A stretch of 64,000 nucleotides of DNA. Origin: Eukaryota sp. GEM-RC1. Its lineage: Eukaryota. The notes below the pieces were generated by a model. The model was not told where the DNA came from and ran no database searches. It saw only the letters and a list, made by a program, of their open reading frames with translations. The stretch is taken from positions 496,001 through 560,000 of the forward strand of contig JAUFOQ010000017.1 of NCBI GenBank assembly GCA_040285855.1, in the 5' to 3' direction. Shown piece after piece: positions 9,896 to 54,326 of the stretch (position 1 is its first letter; every line of letters starts with the position of its first letter). A program made the translations under genes and the position numbers.

Positions 9896-11279
9896 CAGCA
9901 ACGACAAACAATATATTGTATTGTTACAATACAATATATTGTGATATTGTTATTGTATTGTATTGTGTTTTTGCAACAATATATTTCAGGCCCTCTCATA
10001 AGATAATTTAAAATAATTTGAACATCCAAAAGTGACAAAAATAAATGTGAAATAAATATAATTAAAACGAAATAAAACCCAAATAGAAACAAAATATTTT
10101 ATTATACATCTAATCTGAGTCACTATAGATGAATACACAATCCATTTGATCATCCCTTTCTTGTCGAAATAGGTTAGTTGACTTTCTGCTTCGTATAATT
10201 GCTCTAACTGTGTCGTCAATCCATAAATATCTGTGGATCTTCAATATTAGTTCAATGTTCAGCATCGTAAACGACCATGTGAATCGTTCAATGATCATAT
10301 GCCCGGGTATAGTCGTTGGATTGGCTTAGAACACAGGTAAAGGCTCGTCTGTACTGGTTACGTTCGACATTGAAATGGCAAAGTTTGATAGAAAATGTCT
10401 CAACCTTAATTTTTGTCTGAGCTTGAGTATTTCACACATCATGTTTCAAGTCAATCAACAACCTTGAGCACTACATTAACCGATGCACTATATAGATCAA
10501 TGAAGTTTACTTTCCGACATTTTATTTATATTTATTTATATTTTGTTTTATTTAGTTTTATTTGCATCATCGCCAAAAAGGCTCAAAAATAAATAGAAAT
10601 AGAAATAAATAGAAATGAATAGAATTTATATTTATTTATGAGGAGCCCTGATATATTTATTGTTCGAGTCCACAATAAACAATATATTGTACAATAACAC
10701 AATACAATATTTGTCATTTTGTGCAACTATAACAAGAATCACATATCTGCCAACATCATTGTTCTTTAAATTACAACCAAACCATTGGAAGATATGCAAC
10801 TCCCAATTGTAACACCTTGTATATATTACCCAAAATTCTGATGGTATGTCTTTTGAGCAACATTTAAAGGAAATTAACAAAGCTCAGACTCTTAGCAACC
10901 AGACAACACAAATGATCTATCATTCACACCCTCATCCAGTTAAGACATTGACAACTTTTTCAGTAGAGCATAAAACACTCCCACTGATCGTCCGAACCGA
11001 ATTTAATGTCGCAAAGTGAATTTTGGCATTTACTACTACCAAAAATCAGCATACAGTGTCCTTTTTTAGGACTCGGGAAGCAGAAAGTGAAGTTGTACGT
11101 GTAAAAAACAATTATTCAGATTGATGATAGCTTTCAATAAAGCACAAATATTGTATTGTTATTTATTGTTTTTTCTCACAATATACCTACAATACAATAC
11201 AATATTTGATTGGACAATATATTTATTGTTCGATCAAACAATAAACAATACAATAAATATATATTTTTTGTCGTTGCTG
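9896..11279. mobile_element. Non-autonomous hAT-type element (outer member of a nested pair)
   Basis: TIR CAGCAACGACAAA / TTTGTCGTTGCTG; exact 8-bp TSD caatgtag (9888-9895, 11280-11287); subterminal ACAAT/ATTGT repeats. Confidence 0.9.
9987..10650. mobile_element. Non-autonomous hAT-type element nested in the 9896-11279 element
   Basis: Imperfect TIR CAGGCCCTCTCATAA / TTATGAGGAGCCCTG; exact 8-bp TSD atatattt (9979-9986, 10651-10658); subterminal AAATA repeats. Confidence 0.87.
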
Positions 11280-22697: not shown

Positions 22698-23467
22698 ATG
22701 CATCAACCTATGCATCAATCTATGCACCACCCTGGCGGCCCTGGATTTGTTCCTGCAACCTATTCTGTTTGATTCGAGCTTCTTGAACTTATTCTAGACG
22801 TATCAGCAACAACAGCGCCCTCATCCTGTCTATCAACAATCGTCTCCCCTTTGGTTTTTGCCTCAAATGTTGTGGGTGCTACTGTATCACGTGCTGTTGT
22901 ATTTTTATTCTGCTCATTGTGTTGCTTGTCATATTCGGAACTTCTGGTATTGCTTATCGACGAGTTGCATTTGTTGTTGACAGTGACAAATCTGTTCGCT
23001 TTGCTGTGGACTACGATAACATGATTCTCTATCGCTCAGGTTCATCTCCAGATCACATTGGTCATTTCAATGATACTCAACAAATCTTCAAGATTCATGA
23101 TGGTCATGTCTATACAAAGCATGATGGGGATGACCATTGCGATCGTCAAGATCTTGATGCTGACCTCAAAGAAGCGGTAATGAATTTCATTCGACTAGCC
23201 TTACCCCCTTTTGATGCTGAGCGAAGTTCTACCACCTCGTACAGCTCTGAATGCGAACTGTTTACTGCAATAATCCCGTATTATGGTACAAGCAACGTAC
23301 AACTTGCTGTTGACTACTGTGTTGATTATGAGTTCAATTATCGCACTAGAGTAGTTGATTCAAGCTTCCATGACGTGATTTTTGACGAGAGAGTTTTCTC
23401 TGATCACGAACGTTTGGAATCTTCTGATTGGCGATTTAATGTACATGATTTCTGTTCAAACTATTAA
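22698..23467 (+). CDS. Single-pass membrane protein, paralog 1 (Cys-rich juxtamembrane segment; 5' part frameshifted, start uncertain)
   Basis: Clear similarity to 24839-25522 (VDY.N.ILYRSG, QIFK..DG.V.TK...D.HC.RQD, LPP.DA, FD.R.FS.H); CLKCCGCYCITCCC precedes the TM segment. Confidence 0.65.
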
Positions 23468-23646: not shown

Positions 23647-24624
23647 AAAAAACGGGGTTTATGATCAGTCAGTGAAATAAATGCATTTGCAGAAGTTAAT
23701 AACTAACAGACACTAACTAAAGTATCTAAACTATGATCCTTCTGTCCATCACCGAACAACTTACCTAAAATTGAATTAAAATAACTGTGCATTGAACGAA
23801 ACAACGCAAACGTTAACCTACTCAACCAAAAATTTTCATTGAAAACTTTACCATACTCAGAACACAATTTACCAAAGGAAGTTAAAAAACCTTGTGCAGC
23901 TGGTCCAATATTACCGTATATCGACATCGCAAAAGGTTGAAACACAAAAGAATTGTACCTGTCAACATTCAATTGGTTAATTAAGTGACAGTACTTTGTA
24001 TTTTTTTCTTTTCAGCCACTTCAAGAGCCGAAAAATCATCAAAAATTTTTGAAATTGATCTTGAATTACAAGGATCAACAGTCGTGAAATCCATGATAAT
24101 TTCCTGACAAGATAACCAAGGTCCAATCAAATCACCACGACTTCTATCAACTTTTGGCTGATCAGAAAGATTAGCAAGTAAAGGTTCAATTTTTCCATGA
24201 AAACCATTAGCCTTAAACATATCCAAACATGTATCTCGGATACTGTTGTGAATAATTGATGGAAAATGAATAAATTGATGACAGTTGACTAAATGATGAA
24301 AATTTGAAGCCTTTGAACGACCACAGAGACATGGAGAATGCTTCAAGAGACCTGAAGGCCATAAACCTAACCTAAGTCTCATGTTTATAAGTCATTCATG
24401 ATCCTTAAGATTAAAACAAAATTTTCTTGGCAAACGAGAAACAAAAGAAGACGCAGCGCTTGAAGAAATATCATTCAAAAAAGCACAAAAAGCGGGAGTC
24501 TTAGTCTTAGCCAAGCTAATACGGTTTTTAAAGTCCAAGCTTTCGTGAAACAAAACAAACTTCTTCTGTAACTTGCGAACACACAAAGGCAAAGAGAAAA
24601 ATGAAAAAAGAGAAAAGAGAGAGT
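23647..24624 (-). mobile_element. 5'-truncated CRE-like (RLE) non-LTR retrotransposon, family A copy 2
   Basis: MRLRLG, zinc-knuckle-like CLCG...HHLVNC, HNSIRD, RGD, AE..K..KY; ends CCCCGTTTTTT; TSD actaatag/actattag (23639-23646, 24625-24632, 1 mismatch). Confidence 0.88.
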
Positions 24625-24838: not shown

Positions 24839-25522
24839 CTTAAGCCAAATTCTAGGTCTGGTAGAGGGAATCCCACCACTTATCGCCCTTCTGGATTTAC
24901 CAACTTCTGTTTTAAACTTTGCTGTTTCTGTTGGGTGCCAACTGTAATAATCTTCTACATTGTGATGCTTATTGTGTTTGGACCAGGAGATTGGGTCCAT
25001 AGACAAGTCTCCTTCAACATTGATGCTGATCCATCTATTCTGTACTCAGTGGATTATGAGAATCTAATTTTATATCGCTCTGGACGCTTTCCCGATGAGC
25101 ACGGCGACTATCGCAGTGCAGAACAAATATTTAAACTACAAGATGGATACGTGTTCACCAAGTGCCTGGAAGACCTTCACTGTCATCGTCAAGACATTGG
25201 AGACCAGGAGCAGTCAATTCTTGACTTCATTCATTTAACTTTACCACCTCGTGATGCAACCAAAGTGCTTGAAAAACGTTCCGGAAAGACCATGTGTACA
25301 GTAGTGGAAGCCAAAATACCTTATAATGGTCCTGAAGTTGACTTTGTTCACGTGGAATATTGTGTTACTGGTCTGTTAAACTATGAAACCAGGATAACAG
25401 ATCCAAAGTTGCATGATCTTCTATTTGATGTAAGATACTTCTCAGAACATCAGAAGTTGGAAGTTTCTGATAGAATGTTCAATGAGGATCTTCTTTGTTC
25501 AAGAATTGAAACATACCAGTAG
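24839..25522 (+). CDS. Single-pass membrane protein, paralog 2 (start uncertain)
   Basis: Paralog of 22698-23467; FCFKLCCFCW precedes the TM segment. Confidence 0.65.
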   Translation, partial: LKPNSRSGRGNPTTYRPSGFTNFCFKLCCFCWVPTVIIFYIVMLIVFGPGDWVHRQVSFNIDADPSILYSVDYENLILYRSGRFPDEHGDYRSAEQIFKLQDGYVFTKCLEDLHCHRQDIGDQEQSILDFIHLTLPPRDATKVLEKRSGKTMCTVVEAKIPYNGPEVDFVHVEYCVTGLLNYETRITDPKLHDLLFDVRYFSEHQKLEVSDRMFNEDLLCSRIETYQ

Positions 25523-25628: not shown

Positions 25629-26645
25629 TATAAGAGATTATTTGCAACAATAAATTAATAAATACTAATTCAGAAAATGAAAGAAGTTAAATTCTCCACA
25701 TCAACACGAGAATTGTCCCTATACAACTTCGAATAAATGGAACATAAATATTTGGGAATGCTTCTATAAAGAGCGAACATAATTCGATTAATCCATACAG
25801 CGCTATTAAACACCTTGCCATTAGAACGACATAAAAGACTAAAATCACTGAAAAACTTTAAACCGGCTGGACCAATATTACCAATTAGCAGTGAGTGCCT
25901 TTTATGAGGACAAAGCTGTTGTAAGGTTTGATAGCGACGGGTGTTGTTTTAATGACATCAAATTTTAGTTGTTTGATTTATAACATTTATAATTTCCAGA
26001 TGACCATTCGAATCATTCAATATGGAGTCTTGGTAGACTTTTGCAAACTGGTCAACTGTAGTAAAATCAACCACAACTTGAGATGAATCCAGGAAAGGAG
26101 CAAGTAAGTCACCACGCCGAGAATCAAACACGTTATTGTCACTATAATGTTTCAGAAGAGGTTCAATTTTACAACTATAATTGTAGGATTTGAACATTTC
26201 ATAAGTAACGTCACGAACAGTGCTATGTAGAACAGATCGAAATTGCAAAAATTTCTTACAACTAATAACATGACGAAATGTGGCTGCAGATCGGTCATCG
26301 CAAACACAGATAGAATTCTTTAGCAAACCACTAGGGAATAAACCTAATCGAAGACGCATAGTTTGCTTCCAAGCATCATTGTTCAAATGTAAACCAAAAG
26401 GTCTAGGTTGTTGAGTGATGAAGCCAGAACATTGTTGAATGTCACATAAAACAGCTGCAAAGACGGGATTATCAATCTTAGTCACACCAAGTCTTGTACT
26501 AAAATCCAAGTCTTCCAACCCAAGTAATGTTGCATTCTGTAACATAACTACAGCAAGAGGTAGAAATTCAATTGACCGATCAGGAATAGATGAAACACTT
26601 ATCGGGAAACTTTTGTTCCAAACTTCAATAGGCAAACCTAACCTT
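25629..26645 (-). mobile_element. Truncated CRE-like (RLE) non-LTR retrotransposon, divergent family B
   Basis: MRLRLGLFP, CVC...HVISC, HSTVRD, IEPLL, RRGD and VVVDFTTVD motifs; ends approximate (possible imperfect TSD tttttaagRaata). Confidence 0.8.
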
Positions 26646-26961
26646 TTTTTAAGAAATAATTTTAATAAGTAACAATATCAGTCTAGGTGATTTCTTTGAT
26701 GGACTCACTATCATTCAACGATTGTGTTTAAATAATCCTTCGAAAATACCATACAACAATTTTGTTCAAGAACATCGAAACTGGTCTGGTTTGAATCACA
26801 AGTAGTGTGATCATAGAAGACAGGCCAGTGTGATCACGTGTGTTTGTGATCCACAAGTTTGATTAGATTGCTTTGATTTACGATCGATCAAGTGGTTTTT
26901 GAATAAGAACTATATAAACCTAAACCAAACTTGTCAAACAAGTAATGTTTTAGCTTATCAT

Positions 26962-27095
26962 GAGAACGGCTAAGAGTGTGACAGAATTTGAATTTGGAAT
27001 TTCAGATTTCTTTTGGAGAATGGCTAAGAGTGTGATAGAATTTGAATTTGGAATTTCAGATTTCTTATGCATGTGACAGAATTTGAATTTCAGAC
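26962..27095 (+). repeat. ~54-bp tandem duplication plus a partial third unit rich in GAATTT
   Basis: GAGAAYGGCTAAGAGTGTGAYAGAATTTGAATTTGGAATTTCAGATTTCTT occurs twice, followed by TGTGACAGAATTTGAATTTCAGA. Confidence 0.85.
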
Positions 27096-28267
27096 CATGA
27101 ATTACAATTCATTCAAATTTTACAATTCAAAAGTTCACTAGTTACTTCAGATTGCGTTTAAAGATGTTGAAAGATCAGATTTTGTATCGACCCAGACATG
27201 AAGCCTTACAGTATATTAATCCTTTTAACTCTGTCACCCACTTTGAGAATGTTAAGTTTATTGAGGAAGTTTCTAAAGATTTTGATGATGATTTCAGTAT
27301 GTTAATATTTGACCAGATTAATTCTCTTGTGGCTGATAAAATTCCAGAATTACTTCACAGATTTAATATCTTATTTCCTACTTCAATCACTACAAACGAC
27401 AATGAAACTGTAGACGTCTGTTATTTACTTTCCACAGTTCAGGAGTATCCACTTCATTTCTAAGAAATTCTCTTCACATCTCAGATTACTTGGAATCAAA
27501 GGGTGCTAAGTTGTATAATGTAATTCTCGTAAGCTGGGAGAATACTCCTTGCTTTTTCCCAATAGATACTAGAACTTTTTGGGGACTGGCTAAGCACTGT
27601 TTTGGATATAGGAATAATGATAAGAAAAGTGGACCTTTACATTAAAAAGTGAAAAATTTTATGAGTAATGACCAGATCACCAAAATGACCCATTCTCAAC
27701 AACAAGATTACTGGAAAAGATGGTTTAACTGTGATGACAGAACTTGTCACGAAGCCAATTTTGAATTCAACAACTACTAGTAGTAATATGCTGTAACTGA
27801 TGGAATTTCTTTTTGTTTTCAATTTTTGTGAAAGGATCTGAAAGCAATGAAATATAAACCTGATTCAAGTAAAGCTTCAGTTAAAGTCCAATACTTCAAC
27901 GAATGTGATAGGTCTGATTTTATTTCTAAACAAATGGTCTATGTTGACATTGGAAAGAGAGATGCGCTACAACTTGCATCAAAATCAAATAGGGAAACTC
28001 AAAATCCTCTAAAAAAATACAACTTCTTACGATTGACGTATGCTGAGTGGTCTAGAGTTTCAAGAAAGCATAAAGGAATCCACCAGTATCTTGTCAGAAA
28101 GAGATCTGGTACTAGTCCCTCAGGTCAGACAAAGACTATTGAGGAATGGAACACTTGGTTAGGTGAAGATCAGAATTCTAAGACAGTCAACTACAATAAA
28201 TTTAGAGAATTTATGCTGAATAAATGCATTCACCACAATACAACTAAAGACTTCTATGCTTTGCATA

Positions 28268-28623
28268 CAGTGTTCGAAATGTGTCGGACACGTTCGGACA
28301 TGTGTTTCACACGTTCGTTTTGTTTTTGGACACGTGTGCACCTTTTGTTCTCAAAAAGTAGAGGTACTTTATTTTGTCACTAGTTACTACATACAAGACA
28401 AGGGTTCTATATCACATCGTCCTCTGAGTCTTCAACGTCAGTTACATCGTTAATGTCATCTTCATTAGAATTTGTTGAGAGCCAGTCATCTTGGAATGAG
28501 GGGAGAGTGAGAAATCTTTGAAAGGACGGAAATGTTGAATTCACACCGTTCGGACACGTGTGCGGTTCGGAAACGGTTTTCACACGTTCGTTTTCTGAAT
28601 GACACATGTGTTTTCGAACACTG
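28268..28623. mobile_element. hAT-type MITE inserted in the Fanzor ORF
   Basis: TIR CAGTGTTCGAAA / TTTCGAACACTG; exact 8-bp TSD tttgcata (28260-28267, 28624-28631); subterminal GACACGT-like repeats. Confidence 0.92.
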
Positions 28624-28898
28624 TTTGCATATATGGAGGATTCACAAAATCCAAAATCATGTCCATAAGCAAAATTCAGAGTCTAAATTAATTAACCGCA
28701 TTGTAAAAACTTTTGGTAAGCATGACAAAATCGTATTATGTAATGGTGATTTAGGTCAGAAGCCGATGGCCAACTTAAAACACAGTCCACCATCGAGAAC
28801 TAAGACTTGGACTTCATTCTTTCAGAGAAACGGTTTTTTAACAGTGATGAATGATGAGAGAAACACTTCGTCCAAGTGTCCAGAATGTCATGAAAATG

Positions 28899-29661
28899 TA
28901 GGGGTGTACAAGACTCGAGTCGGACTCGAGTCGGACTCAGCTATTGTAAGTCTGAGTCTGAGTCCGACTCACCGTATCTGAGTCTGAGTCTGAGTCGAAC
29001 TCAACTAGTCTGAGTCTGAGTCTGAGTCCGACTCACCATATCTGAGTCTGAGTCTGAGTCCCACTCATAATATCTGAGTCTGAGTCTGAGCTTGAGTTTC
29101 ACATCATAAACAATCTTAATTAAGTACATTATTAACCATTATTATTCTACTGTCCACCGCTTATGACAGACACATGCTTCAACATTTAAATCTGTTAGAC
29201 GTAATCTGTCAGGAGTCACAACTCTTCCAGCCTGTGAAAAAAGAGACTCAGAAGCTACATTAGAGGCTTGAACTGATAGTGCAATTCGCGATGTTCTTGC
29301 AAGTGTAGGGAACTTTGATTCATTAAGTTTCCACTATATCAAAGGATCTTGGTCCATTTCAATAAGTCCATCACTGAGATAGATATCAAGTTCATCTAAC
29401 TCAGTTGATTGTTCTTCGTTACGAACACATACTTTTTTTTCTTGCAAGATCTTTCATTAGAGATTTTATTATTAATAAGATAATTTTATATGAAATACCT
29501 GAGTCTGAGTCGGACTTAAGGATTGTGAGTCTGAGTCTGAGTCGGACTTAAGGATTGTGAGTCTGAGTCTGAGTCTGCCTCGGGGGTTGTGAGTCTGAGC
29601 CTAAGTCTGAGTCTAGACTCAGCTCGAGTCTAAACTTGAGTCGAGTTTTTGTACACCCCTA
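28899..29661 (-). mobile_element. Internally deleted hAT transposon inserted in the Fanzor zinc-finger region
   Basis: TIR TAGGGGTGTACAA / TTGTACACCCCTA; 8-bp TSD tgaaaatg (28891-28898, 29662-29669); (TCTGAG)n subterminal arrays; minus strand encodes a hAT dimerization domain remnant (ELDIYL...DPLI*WK.NE.KFPTLA...QASNVASESLFSQAG.VVT..R.RL). Confidence 0.95.
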
Positions 29662-29899
29662 TGAAAATGTGTTTGAAACTTCTATTGAGGTTGTCAACCC
29701 AAAGCCCAAATCAAGAGAGAAGAAAGAATGGATTCATCCACATGGCTTACTAAAGTGTAAGAGCAAACATTGTCTGGGAGAAGTCAAGAAGCCATTGAAG
29801 GGGGGAAAAGAAAAGGGCACACAGTGCCCATCCAAACGTATTGCAATCGTAACGAGATGGCTTGTTTGAACATGATGAACATGTTCGAACACTGGATGA

Positions 29900-29995
29900 A
29901 AGGAAGTGATGAGAGAGTGGAGTATCTGAGTAGTAATTAGCTTCATATATTTTTGTTAGCTGGCTGGTGAAACCCCGCCATATTTGGTTAAGTCC
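29900..29995 (+). ncRNA. Candidate Fanzor omegaRNA scaffold / element right end
   Basis: Directly 3' of the Fanzor stop (29940); GC-rich hairpin TGGCTGGTGAAACCCCGCCA (29961-29980) in AT-rich DNA; boundaries are inferred. Confidence 0.4.
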
Positions 29996-30193
29996 ATGAA
30001 TCATAAAGATCAACCTAAAAACATCTTTATGCAAGAAACAATGTAATGTAATGTACATATTGTGTGTGTAACTTTGTTGTGATTGAGTCAACACACAGAA
30101 GTTGCACTTAAAAGAAAATAACTTGAAATGCCATCGACTATTGGTGCAAAAACACAACAAGAACAACCTAGAAAAACTCAAAATACACATAAT

Positions 30194-31711
30194 TTAGACA
30201 GAATATACTTTGAAAATTTGAGCGTTCCAAGCTTCGATCACTGCGATAAACTCTCCCGATCTAACATCTTTTCCACTCCAATCCCAATAATTACCTGTCA
30301 AAACATCATAAAACCGAATAGTCTCACCAGCAATATCAAGAGAAATCTTACCACTACCACTATTATCCGAATAATTGACAACAACTAATACTAAATCACT
30401 ATCCAAAGTCCACTTCCACGACAACAGTCTCCAGCAATCACTAGTTCCTTGAACTGCAACGGGAGAAAACTTCCCAGTCTTAAATATGGAAAGATCTGAA
30501 GTCAAGTAGTTGTTATACCATTGACTTACAGCTTTATCAACAGCCTCACTTGCAGATCTTCGAAGGTGGACGTCGAGTCTGTTTCGCTTTCCTTCCCATT
30601 GACCGTGATGATGGAACTTAAGACCTGGTAAAGTAAATGAGACCAACGCAGCTCCTATTGATCTAGTGGCAGATCCAAAGCTTACCACAGCTCGTTCCTC
30701 ATCATGATTCTCTACAAAGTGAGCAAAGTGAATCATGTGAGACTTGCGACCCCACACGAGTCCCCTAATATTATCCAAATCTCCACTCTTCAAAGCTTCG
30801 TACATACCATCCTTATCATAAACAGAGTCAAACCCAAGGCCCAGAAGTTCTTCTTCCTTGTACCAGTACTGTTCAGCAAGGAAAAGACAATCAGGGAACT
30901 GTTTCTTAACTTCTTTGATGGCACTTTCCCAAAACTCAACTCTAGGTTTGGAATAGCCTAAATCCTTCATGTGATTACCCCACGTCATTTCGATCACGTC
31001 ATTGAGAAGGAGCATGGCCATATCAACTCTAATGCCATCAGCATATGAAGCCACAGTAAGAAGATTCTGTATTTGAAGCTTGATGGTTTCCTGATCCCAG
31101 TAATTAAGCTGAGCAGTATCAGTCCAAGCTCCAGAGTAAGGGTCCTTTCCATAGGCAACACCATTACGGAGGTACTCAGAGGAAGGGCAGTCCCAACCAG
31201 GGGGACATCTGATGAAGTATCTGAGGTTGGACATGAAGATGGTATCCGTGGCCATGTGGTTGGGAACGAAGTCAAGCATTAAACGGAGGCCGAACTTGCG
31301 CAGGCGGTATCTAAAGCGAGTAAGAGCACCGTTTCCTCCAATTACAGAGTTTGTAGAGTAGTTTACAACAGCGTAAGGAGAACCAATGACATCGTCCATG
31401 GTGAAATCTGGGAGAAGTCTCTTGAATCCATTGATTAGACCAGGGTCAGTGCGATCGTGGAGAAGACCGCTAGGACCGAGTTGCCAAACTCCCATCATGT
31501 AGACCATATCCATGTTCATGTTTGCGATTACCTGGATCTCAGCATCAGGAACATCGTCAAGAGAGTGGATGGAACGTTGGTACTTCTGAGAAAGCTCATA
31601 CAGCCAAGGACGGGTAGAAATCTCATAAACAGCTCCGTTTATGGTAGAAGGGGATTTAAAATGAGCTAGGGCGAGTGACAAAATAGTGAGAAGAGTGAAA
31701 AGCCAGAACAT
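30194..31711 (-). CDS. Secreted GH13 alpha-amylase family glycosidase (prokaryote-like)
   Basis: Signal peptide MFWLFTLLTILSLALA; GSPY, LMLDFVPNH, DGIRVDMA, FLAE and FVENHDE catalytic motifs; intronless. Confidence 0.9.
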   Translation of the reverse strand: MFWLFTLLTILSLALAHFKSPSTINGAVYEISTRPWLYELSQKYQRSIHSLDDVPDAEIQVIANMNMDMVYMMGVWQLGPSGLLHDRTDPGLINGFKRLLPDFTMDDVIGSPYAVVNYSTNSVIGGNGALTRFRYRLRKFGLRLMLDFVPNHMATDTIFMSNLRYFIRCPPGWDCPSSEYLRNGVAYGKDPYSGAWTDTAQLNYWDQETIKLQIQNLLTVASYADGIRVDMAMLLLNDVIEMTWGNHMKDLGYSKPRVEFWESAIKEVKKQFPDCLFLAEQYWYKEEELLGLGFDSVYDKDGMYEALKSGDLDNIRGLVWGRKSHMIHFAHFVENHDEERAVVSFGSATRSIGAALVSFTLPGLKFHHHGQWEGKRNRLDVHLRRSASEAVDKAVSQWYNNYLTSDLSIFKTGKFSPVAVQGTSDCWRLLSWKWTLDSDLVLVVVNYSDNSGSGKISLDIAGETIRFYDVLTGNYWDWSGKDVRSGEFIAVIEAWNAQIFKVYSV

Positions 31712-32319
31712 TGAGGAAAATTGATGAGCTATTGGCAATTGGCTCCACATCATCTATCGCCAGATTCTAGTTCATCTATCCACTCATATAACACACAACG
31801 AAGAAGGACATTTATTAGCAGAAGTTATAAGTTTTACAAGCCTCAGCGATGCATTTCTGGAAAGAACATCTGCCGTATATGTAAGCGTAACAGGCAGCAT
31901 TGCATTGTTGATGGTATTTTGATAATAATTAATAGCAAAACATGCCGCAGAATTCTGGTGTCCTAGAAGGTTTGAACTTTTGGAGCTTTGACTTACAATC
32001 GGAGCAACTGGAATTTATGGATGAAGACTCAGCAGTAGCTAGAGAGAAGAGAAGAATCAACGATAAAAGGAATGCATAAACTCAAGAAAATAGCTCAAGA
32101 GTGACCTGAAAGACCAACTTGAACAAAATAACACGCGTGTGGAAACAACATTTTTACCCAACACAATAAATGTTGGAGATTGTTCTATTTCACTTGTTCT
32201 ATTTCGATACTGCCGAGTTCCAGCTTACATTCAACCACATGCTACTGATACTGTTAGCAGCAATAAAGTATTGTATTGGACTAAAACAATGAACATCGAA
32301 CTGAATGTCTACATGTAAA

Positions 32320-40255: not shown

Positions 40256-41486
40256 CATTTTGGTGGTATTGGTTTTTACCAAATCATCAATTCCTTGCAA
40301 ATCTGCTTTTTTAGGCGGTGGAAAAAATTTCATTTTTGAATTTGTTAATCGATTTCCTAATGATATTTCACTTATTAACCCCAATTGATGTAAATGTTTA
40401 TTTGACTTAAACGAGGCGTTAATCAAATTACCTTTTGACGTTTGGTCTCAGTGTTTCCCAGAATCTGTGTCTGAAATACCTGAAAGATGTTTAACTAATC
40501 TTCAGTTCTGTCTGAAAAAATTACAACAGAAACTTACAAATATTTTTGAAAGTTTGGATTATAATGTTCGACTTGGCATGGCCAAGGAAAATAATCCCGC
40601 TTTTGCAAATTTCTTTAACGGATGTTTCTAATAGCTCTGCTTCATGTCTGATTACTCAAATCCCTCAAGTTTACGGTTTTCTTCTTGATGATAACTCTTG
40701 GTCATTAAACATGCGTTTACGGTCATATATTTGGCCTGATAACCTTCCACATAATTTGAAACGCAAATGTGGGCAATCTGTAACACCTACACATTTATTG
40801 AATTGTAACCGTTTTATTTCTTTTAGAAGTAAGGTTCATGATTCAGTAAGGGATCAATTATATTGTATGTGTAAATCTTATGGAATAGTTTCCTTTTTAG
40901 AACCAGTTCTGGCTAGTTTGTTTGATGATACAGATGTTGACAAATCGTTTGGAAATAGCCGTGGTGAAGTCATATTTCCTGGTCTCGATGGATCTTTCAT
41001 TATTGCTGATGTTATGTCTATCGATGTTTGTAATGATTCCAACAAGAAACTTGCTAAATCTAATGCTAAAAACCCCTTATTGATTGGTGAAAAATTTAAA
41101 ATGCAAAAATATTGTGCTAAATTGAAATTATTGAATTCGGCTTCACACTCGAATTACTTGTTGTACCCTTTTGTATTTTCACTATACGGTTCTTTAGGTG
41201 AATCTGTATCATCATTACTTGAAATCTTTGTGAAGATTGTAAAAGAAAAAACATCTAGAACTTTTGATCTTAGATTTTGGAAAAATCGAATCGTGTTTGC
41301 TATCTTTAAAGGTATGGTCACTTCTGTATCTAGCGCTTTATTATCTCTTGGCAGACATTATGAAGATAAGGTAGGTGAAAATTTCCAGTTAGGCAATCTG
41401 GACTTTGAGGATATTGATTATTAGATGTATGTACACTGTAGTGTTATTCTCTATTACATTTAGAATAAATAATTCGTTATAAAAAA
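40256..41486 (+). mobile_element. 5'-truncated CRE-like (RLE) non-LTR retrotransposon, family C, poly(A)-tailed
   Basis: MRLR, CGQ...HLLNC, HDSVRD, LEP, IIADV, E..K..KY and YPFVFSLYGSLG; short A tail; 14-bp TSD agtgaatattgctt (40242-40255, 41487-41500). Confidence 0.92.
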
Positions 41487-52626: not shown

Positions 52627-53517
52627 TCAAACGTTAGTTGTCATTTCAGTGTCCTTTTGACCATCAGTCTCATCATCAGGACCTTCAATGTTACGTCTAA
52701 ATACATTGATAATCTTGCAAAGAGTAACCATGATAGGTAGTTCAGTTAAAACACCAACAACAGTGGCCAACACTGCTGGACTCTGAGGACCGTACATTAC
52801 CATAGCAGAAGCAACCGCCAATTCAAAGAAGTTGGAGGAAGAAATCATTGAAGAAGGTCCTGCGTACTTGAAAGGGACTTTGAAGAAAATAGATGTCAAG
52901 AACGGAATAGTAAAAATGAAAAAAGTGTGAATTGTGAAAGGAACAGCAATGAGCAAAATGTGGAAGGGATTGGAAACAAAGGCTTCTCCTTGAAACAAGA
53001 AGATCAACACGAGTGTGGAAAGAAGAGCAACCATGGAGAAGTTGCCTCCAAACTTGATGACGGCATCAAGTTATTTCTGACCACCTTCTCTACGCATCAA
53101 GATAGCTCGGGTGATGACACGGTGCATTGCTGTACACGGTGCTATTCCGAGGAGAATAGCTCCAGCTAAATACCCTGTCTGTTCTTCCTCTGAAAGTAGG
53201 GATGAGAAAACGAAATTGAAGAACAACTTGCTCCATAAGAACATAGAGATGGGAGCTAGGCACCAACTTGTTATTAGTGTGATAACGATGGCTTTCTTGT
53301 GCTCACCAATTTTTCTAAGGCTGTTCAAATCGATCTTGAGCAGCATTGGATATATCATTGCAAACAAAAGGAAACCAATAGGCGAGTTGACTTCGTAAAA
53401 GGTCAGTTGTTCACCCAAGAACTTAGGCAATACTGGAACGAAGTTGCTGAGAAGGGTTCCCGAAACAATACATAGGAAGACCCAGACAGTAAGATATTTT
53501 TCAAACAGACCAAGCAT
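52627..53517 (-). pseudogene. acr3: Acr3-family arsenite efflux permease with an internal deletion
   Basis: MLGLFEKYLTVW, MIYPM, GYLAG.ILLG.APCTAM, SSNFFELAVA and ATVVGVL.E.P; the segment normally following APCTAM is missing. Confidence 0.85.
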
Positions 53518-53557
53518 TGGAAGAATGAACAACACGTCATGTCACGTTACTCTGTTT

Positions 53558-54326
53558 CATAGTTCGAAATGCGAACGTGTTATTCAGTTGCCGCACGTAT
53601 TCCGCACGTGCGCGTATGGAGTACGGCAGAACACGTGCGAGAATACCATACTCTTACATAAACACGTGTTGCATTTCTTTTATCATGTGGTCCATTACAT
53701 TAGAACATTACAGTGTAATGATTACACTGATGCTTTAAATGAGTTTTATGATTTCGAGAACAAACATAGCTTTTACAAAAACCATCAGCATGGCAAGAAA
53801 TGGAGAAATGTTCACCCAAATCTTTGTGGGGAAAAAATGGCTCACGGGATGGTATTCTTCGTTCAGTACCAATCAAAAATGGAAGTCAATCAACTTCTAG
53901 TGGTGCTGTCGAGAGAAATTGCATTGTGCACTTCATCATTAAAACCAAGAAACGCAACAGGATGAAAACTTTCCTCCTGAATGATTTAATATTTTTTTAC
54001 GCCAATCAAAGACGGAACACCAGATTATTAAAATCGCTGGAAAAGATCTTGTGGAATTGATCAGTGTATTGCTGAACCTCAAGATGAGGACCATGACACT
54101 CTTGAAGATGAACCAGAAGACCGTATTGTTGTGAATCCCTACCTTAATGAAGAGTTGTAGTTTTTGTTTCCAATAATAGTATTTTAGAATAAAAAAAGGT
54201 GCTGGTTAACAGAAAAGAGTATTAAAAAGAAGAATACGTTGGAATACGGTAAAAGAAGCTGCACGTATTCCACACGTGCGCGTATGGAGTACGTGACCGA
54301 ACGTGTCGTACGCATTTCGAACTATG
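53558..54326 (+). mobile_element. Internally deleted hAT transposon
   Basis: TIR CATAGTTCGAAATGCG / CGCATTTCGAACTATG; exact 8-bp TSD ctctgttt (53550-53557, 54327-54334); internal dimerization-domain remnant SQSTSSGAVERN...IKTKKRNRM....NDLIF. Confidence 0.93.

Follow-up and report, generated by a model that had tools for sequence, protein, structure and literature searches.

A dead, truncated Fanzor1 variant in Eukaryota sp. GEM-RC1 and its skoliomonad relatives with a predicted exonuclease fusion

The closest described systems are the Fanzor1 nucleases SpuFz1 from Spizellomyces punctatus (PDB 8GKH/9CEZ) and PpFz1 (9CF0), which are the best sequence and fold matches of the locus presented here. 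Fanzor1 proteins have a catalytic glutamate (Ealt) six residues before the zinc finger and a TDG motif in the WED domain, and a DPG motif at RuvC-I is near-exclusive among Fanzors (PMC10711439). An RD motif at RuvC-III of Fanzors is reported in PMC3627910. GtFz1 has a D-E-N triad and cuts DNA; the D606N change increases the activity of SpuFz1, and N658D decreases that of GtFz1 (PMC11423790). The locus lies in a stretch of 64,000 nucleotides from Eukaryota sp. GEM-RC1 (GenBank assembly GCA_040285855.1, contig JAUFOQ010000017.1, positions 496,001 to 560,000 of the forward strand), referred to as the window; coordinates are those of the window. It is a dead, truncated copy of a family that, with a probability of roughly 0.5, worked as an RNA-guided cut-and-trim enzyme, in which trimming of the DNA ends would block re-ligation. 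The exonuclease fused to the Fanzor in relatives is the more novel feature of the family and was missed in the initial annotation, which was made from the window sequence alone.

The Fanzor copy is divided into five pieces:

27128..27460, forward strand: piece 1, REC region; tblastn of relatives starts at 27128
27461..28267, forward strand: piece 2, which follows a frameshift near 27460 and contains PIDT, TDG (WED) and the RuvC-I aspartate
28632..28898, forward strand: piece 3, with the RuvC-II glutamate at 28856 and the first zinc-finger CxxC six residues on
29670..29805, forward strand: piece 4, the remaining zinc finger (HGLLKC), up to a frameshift in a G/A run at ~29800-29810
29803..29940, forward strand: piece 5, with RuvC-III NRN (N at 29851) and the natural stop at 29938-29940

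When two insertions are excised, the motifs are found where the initial annotation placed them: PIDT at 27559, TDGIS at 27796, the RuvC-I aspartate at 27946 (VDIGK), the glutamate at 28856 and HGLLKC at 29741. The NRN motif, at 29845, is in another frame than the preceding motifs. TDGIS provides the TDG of the WED domain. In E-RNTSSK-CPEC, the glutamate is six residues ahead of the zinc finger, which agrees with the earlier claim that the catalytic glutamate has been relocated beside it.

In phmmer searches of PDB, piece 3 is most closely related to PpFz1 (9cf0, E 2.2e-6) and SpuFz1 (8gkh, E 4e-6). Its other four matches are designed repeat proteins (about 26 residues). Piece 4 matches residues 1185-1215 of PpFz1 (E 0.022). 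This match is collinear with that of piece 3 and just downstream of it, and the 8-residue gap between the two on PpFz1 is equal to that of the joined protein. The sole PDB matches of the relative P0260 are PpFz1 (E 5.5e-15) and SpuFz1 (E 6.2e-15). The AlphaFold model of another relative, P0259, has SpuFz1 as its best match (E 3.6e-29, TM-score by target 0.83), with TnpB (8iaz, E 8.6e-4), Fanzor2 (9b0l, E 3.3e-3) and Cas12 far behind. The fold of P0259 is that of Fanzor1 rather than of Fanzor2 or TnpB, and these sequence and fold matches support the Fanzor1 lineage of the locus, as initially proposed.

Other searches are less informative. None of nine window pieces has a Pfam match above the curated cut-off (Cas12f1-like_TNB scores E 0.094), a 287-amino acid read-through of piece 2 has no PDB match, and piece 3 retrieved nothing in a word-index search. 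A PDB match of the last piece, 35 amino acids long, is spurious. Two viral loci match over a mere 17-18 residues and were not used as relatives.

Two of the fingerprint residues differ from those of described Fanzors. At RuvC-I, the window and its subfamily have DIG and the relatives from TZLM1 have DLG, while the TZLM3 subfamilies of the same clade keep DPG. At RuvC-III, the window has RN in place of RD. Because both residues fail, the copy is filed as a variant within the Fanzor1 lineage and not as a canonical member.

A search with piece 3 over 1.84 billion representatives returned 120 proteins, and a second search added two further clusters. The resulting relatives comprise at least 63 named proteins, with one cluster represented by 15 of its 18 members. 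Ten of the best-scoring matches of piece 3, which were looked up, are all from Eukaryota sp. TZLM1-RC, TZLM3-RCL and GEM-RC1. TZLM1-RC is presumably a skoliomonad, like the other two. GEM-RC and TZLM3-RCL are skoliomonads, which are free-living metamonads of soda lakes (bioRxiv 10.1101/2023.05.03.539051). The read-through of the window copy is 84.7% identical to P0275 over 554 amino acids. Four members of the family annotated in GEM-RC1 share 83-86% identity with it, the TZLM1 family 49% and the TZLM3 families 34-36%. Within the closest family, eleven members are 88-97% identical to one another.

In a FastTree phylogeny of the RuvC core (88 of 171 sequences, coverage of at least 70%, midpoint-rooted, solved Fanzors left out), the window and 26 relatives form one skoliomonad clade with a support of 1.0, and the window nests in the closest family. 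The family is multicopy across the three named genomes and has open-frame members, among them P0247 (KAL0226007.1), P0259 (KAL0210696.1) and P0126 (KAL0221781.1). The initial annotation had pointed to a Fanzor family in this protist lineage with possible intact copies; the 63 named relatives from three genomes, with open frames among them, and the placement in a clade of 27 are congruent with this. Among the metagenome, viral and prokaryote contigs and the phages searched, there are no DNA loci of relatives.

Among the 38 of the 63 relatives in which RuvC-III can be read, 37 have N and one has D. In the 61 tree sequences outside the clade, the residue is D in 43 and N in two, and the pattern is unread in 16. 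The N of NRN had been interpreted as an inactivating G>A change. This interpretation is ruled out by the 37 of 38 relatives with N and by the active N of GtFz1 (PMC11423790), and NRN is taken from these comparisons to be the normal state of the clade. It is improbable that the RuvC of the clade is inactive or weak, similar to TldR, and that the protein is an RNA-guided DNA binder that delivers just its exonuclease or protease. The clade-wide change from D to N at RuvC-III and the DIG or DLG in place of DPG in two subfamilies are consistent with such a binder. However, the RuvC-I aspartate and RuvC-II glutamate are retained, and an N at RuvC-III supports activity in GtFz1 and enhances that of SpuFz1 (PMC11423790).

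The full-length skoliomonad Fanzor1 members are predicted to fuse a PolB-type 3'-5' exonuclease to the D-E-N RuvC. Of 19 proteins scanned, 12 have the Pfam PolB exonuclease (PF03104) above the curated cut-off; the seven others are five late-starting relatives and two non-skoliomonad Fanzors. A profile of eight family members matches Pol delta (E 4.3e-7). In an Atlas search, PolB exonuclease clusters are on top (0.95), while the whole fusion gives only a 0.75 lead, to Fanzor-like clusters. The family shares three motifs with the exonuclease of family B DNA polymerases (PF03104; Pol delta/epsilon): DxE, NxxxFD and YxxxD, which we take to be those named ExoI, ExoII and ExoIII.

ExoIII (YCxxD) is exactly 28 residues upstream of the first WED strand in all 19 proteins that reach that strand. 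These proteins represent five subfamilies and three named genomes, and their exonucleases are 32-58% identical. Of the other 44 of the 63 relatives, one is a chimeric model and the rest are fragments without the first WED strand. ExoI, ExoII and ExoIII are found together in nine of the 63 relatives, and six of the 63 (P0247, P0126, P0258, P0259, P0265 and P0281) combine them with the D-E-N triad within a single predicted protein. Among the annotated proteins of the window's own family, none holds everything by itself: P0271 spans from the 2A to the exonuclease and ends just before RuvC-I, and P0275 spans from mid-exonuclease to the end.

In the gene models, P0258 is joined to a DEAH helicase in front and P0134 to a DM10 domain; both are probably insertions into host genes. 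Such chimeric-looking models would be expected if the fusion were an artefact that joins neighboring open reading frames. This is highly improbable, as the 28-residue spacing is identical over the five subfamilies and three named genomes.

The family exonuclease profile matches none of the 107 other search hits (best E 0.24), of which only 37 are at least 580 amino acids long and one is a skoliomonad C-terminal fragment. Some DEDD exonucleases act on RNA, and the exonuclease of the same fusion might mature the omegaRNA by trimming its 3' guide end instead of trimming DNA. In Fz1, the guides (up to 20 nucleotides, of which only 15 are protected) are read-through transcripts that have been trimmed (PMC11423790). 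Nevertheless, this alternative is rather unlikely: the best matches of the exonuclease are all proofreading domains of DNA polymerases, and other Fanzor1s mature their guides without a domain of this type (none of the 107 hits).

The longer proteins of the clade contain additional 2A-like and Ulp1-protease segments, and the order of these segments varies between subfamilies. The 2A-like motif GD[V/I]ExNPGP is present in six of the 63 relatives, with all three genomes represented. The 2A consensus motif by itself is insufficient for ribosome skipping (PMC3708506). Ulp1/C48 is above the Pfam cut-off in P0265 and P0281 and slightly under it in P0253. There is no 2A motif between the exonuclease and Fanzor domains.

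A polyprotein that holds unrelated accessory parts in variable order, Ulp1/C48 and the 2A-like motif of six proteins, could also carry the exonuclease as a functional passenger, with a role in the replication of the element or the processing of its ends that does not depend on the Fanzor cut. Long terminal repeat (LTR) retrotransposons are known to have DnaQ-like exonucleases as accessory domains (PMC6338049). While the passenger role is credible, it is unlikely: the positions of Ulp1 and 2A vary, yet the spacing between exonuclease and Fanzor is invariant in 19 of 19 proteins, with no intervening 2A. Coupling of the exonuclease and RuvC activities is suggested by the constant tether and by the catalytic residues that both nucleases keep.

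The cut-and-trim reading is set out in four steps, each of them conditional. An omegaRNA transcribed over the right end of the element would guide the Fanzor part to an empty insertion site, where the D-E-N RuvC would cut both strands, as GtFz1 does. The tethered exonuclease would then degrade the single-stranded 3' end that the cut frees on the non-target strand. Simple re-ligation would be blocked, and repair would lead either to gene conversion from the element-bearing copy (homing) or to a deletion. In the fourth step, the exonuclease-Fanzor unit, either alone or together with the Ulp1 domains, would be freed by the 2A-like motif from the upstream translation product. Proofreading exonucleases act preferentially on a displaced single-stranded 3' end. 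The cuts of SpuFz1 fall after base 16-17 on the non-target strand and after base 20-21 on the target strand (PMC10432273), a stagger that leaves such an end. Restorative homing by OMEGA nucleases, a precedent for the proposed homing, is described in PMC13565253 for TnpB and IscB only. In a more specific form of this reading, the family would encode a natural OMEGA effector with two nucleases, freed from a 2A/Ulp1 polyprotein and carried by a mobile element, that cuts at an RNA-specified site and goes on to resect the cut it has made. This form falls slightly short of even odds.

Several results weigh against the cut-and-trim reading. Motif and family hidden Markov model (HMM) scans do not find the exonuclease in the window, and it is assigned to the ancestor of the copy via relatives that are all predicted gene models. 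Of these, P0253 is without ExoI and P0288 starts after it. The exonuclease region is low-confidence in both AlphaFold models (predicted local distance difference test, pLDDT, mostly 30-58), so its position relative to the cut is not fixed; in Foldseek, the second low-confidence exonuclease model has weak matches to Pol epsilon (E 1.8e-3). At RuvC-I, DIG replaces the usual DPG in the window's subfamily. Trimming of 3' ends leaves 5' overhangs, and homologous recombination starts from the other polarity, so the link between exonuclease and homing is indirect. None of five folds tested for an omegaRNA beats its shuffles (z +0.27 to -1.34). There is no terminal inverted repeat (TIR) near the ends of the Fanzor element, and no element end is found in the window. 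No transposase is present in the family proteins scanned with Pfam, and none is linked.

The copy is dead and 5'-truncated. The initial annotation started it at 26701, but homology to the Fanzor family begins only at ~27128 (weakly at 27100), and the family HMMs have no match farther upstream in the window. Position 27128 corresponds to residue 317 of the 878-amino acid P0275, and the family's exonuclease and first WED/REC part are therefore missing from the copy. Positions 26962-27066 are an unrelated 54-bp tandem repeat. In-frame stops occur at 27643 and 27829, and three more at 27778-27786. Frameshifts are located near 27460 and at ~29800-29810, each within a short homopolymer run. The three clustered stops and the frameshifts near 27460 and 29810 were listed previously, and with both insertions they bear out the earlier view of a dead copy; the stops at 27643 and 27829 are additional.

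The stops at 27778-27786 sit within a 12-bp (four-codon) insertion relative to the family, which coincides with a palindrome:

27773..27784, no strand: 12-bp perfect palindrome at the site of the 12-bp insertion

Palindromes of 10 bp occur at 0.0014 per base in the window, as a background for this one. The palindrome is possibly the hairpin-type footprint of an excised third transposon. In the G/A run at 29800-29810, P0270, P0272 and P0278 also leave the frame (in two different frames), while P0260 and P0275 do not. This shared loss makes the run a likely hotspot of slippage or of assembly or sequencing error, and intact copies may therefore be undercounted.

The two insertions that interrupt the gene are as follows (TSD, target-site duplication):

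28268..28623 (356 bp), no strand assigned: insertion 1, 12-bp exact TIR; TSD TTTGCATA at 28260-28267 and 28624-28631
28899..29661 (763 bp), reverse strand: insertion 2, 13-bp exact TIR; TSD TGAAAATG at 28891-28898 and 29662-29669

Both have the coordinates first described and exact 8-bp TSDs, and their excision in a script restores the frame with the joins DFYALH|IWRIHK and CPECHEN|VFETS. Uninterrupted relatives have identical residues over both junctions, except for HED versus HEN at the second. An 8-bp TSD and a short TIR are the criteria for hAT transposons, and both insertions have them. Elements with a TIR of at least 10 bp and an 8-bp TSD number four in the window, compared with one match in total over 30 shuffles. 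Insertion 2 has 32-bp subterminal repeats and a remnant of the hAT dimerisation domain (Dimer_Tnp_hAT, PF05699) at 29163-29417 on the reverse strand (Pfam E 1.6e-21), and is interpreted as a deletion derivative of a hAT element. The earlier hAT label thus holds for insertion 2. Insertion 1 is termed hAT-like and putatively non-autonomous from its TSD length and TIR. Both are later passengers that disrupt the Fanzor gene and not its carrier.

The other two elements lie elsewhere in the window. The element at 9896-11279 has a 12-bp TIR, an 8-bp TSD (CAATGTAG) and AT-rich subterminal repeats, and is probably a further non-autonomous hAT. The element at 53558-54326 has a TIR and an 8-bp TSD (CTCTGTTT); its end resembles insertion 1, and it appears to interrupt a membrane-protein open reading frame at 53071-53541.

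Downstream of the Fanzor stop are two features:

29941..30190, forward strand: expected omegaRNA and right end of the element, placed from PMC10432273 and not delimited
30194..31753, reverse strand: intact host gene of the alpha-amylase family; best relative is a TZLM1-RC protein (66%)

The alpha-amylase gene limits the 3' end of the element to the ~250 bp after the Fanzor stop. Rfam has no match at 29941-30190 and one chance match inside insertion 2. An 8-bp direct repeat, CCATGAAT, at 27095 and 29994 was rejected as the TSD of a truncated element, with an estimated ~1 match expected by chance. A provirus setting is ruled out, as the flanking genes are host genes.

Upstream, a reverse-strand open reading frame at 25958-26677 belongs to a separate repeat. 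A second copy, at 40516-41424 (forward strand), is 33% identical to it, and another, recognized by eye, lies at ~23900-24600 (reverse strand). The copies at 25958-26677 and 40516-41424 have no Pfam match; the repeat resembles the C-terminal end, with a restriction-like endonuclease, of a non-LTR retrotransposon. The genes at 22787-23467 and 24839-25522 are tandem paralogs (43% identical) with a Cys-rich, hydrophobic N-terminus.

By itself, the dead copy is an ordinary transposon fossil, and the interest lies in the family. A literature search found no report of metamonad Fanzors and no natural Fanzor-exonuclease fusion; Repbase, subscription journals, figures and bioRxiv supplements were outside its scope. 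The word "exonuclease" is absent from the accessible main text of PMC3627910, PMC10530073, PMC10691335, PMC10432273, PMC13565253 and PMC11423790 and from the accessible supplements of PMC10530073 and PMC10711439, and PMC12338488 does not mention Fanzor. The exonuclease-fused D-E-N Fanzor1 clade is apparently undescribed. It extends Fanzors to metamonads.

The window shares the TDG of the WED domain, the relocated RuvC-II glutamate and the CxxC zinc finger with SpuFz1 and PpFz1. The differences from these proteins are the N of the clade at RuvC-III, the DIG of the window's subfamily at RuvC-I and the N-terminal exonuclease of the family, with 2A-like and Ulp1 segments upstream of it. The alignment of the family profile to SpuFz1 starts only at the first WED strand. 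GtFz1 (Guillardia theta, PDB 9CER), which cuts DNA, has a D-E-N triad like that of the clade (PMC11423790), and the family is a second, clade-wide case of this triad. GtFz1 is a weaker fold match to the P0259 model (E 3e-18) than SpuFz1 and is not in the tree, and the N at RuvC-III may therefore have an independent origin. Unlike Pol delta and epsilon, the family has no polymerase domain after the exonuclease; the Fanzor WED strand follows 28 residues after ExoIII.

TREX2-Cas9 and exoCasMINI likewise tether an exonuclease to an RNA-guided nuclease. These are laboratory constructs, whereas the skoliomonad fusion is natural and conserved over three named genomes. That an end-processing enzyme is naturally coupled to an RNA-guided nuclease bears on the purpose of Fanzor breaks, homing versus target destruction, and open-frame members in public records make this question testable without rebuilding the window copy. 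If the cut-and-trim reading is true, the family would be a natural counterpart of the engineered TREX2-Cas9, and a self-trimming Fanzor could raise editing yields.

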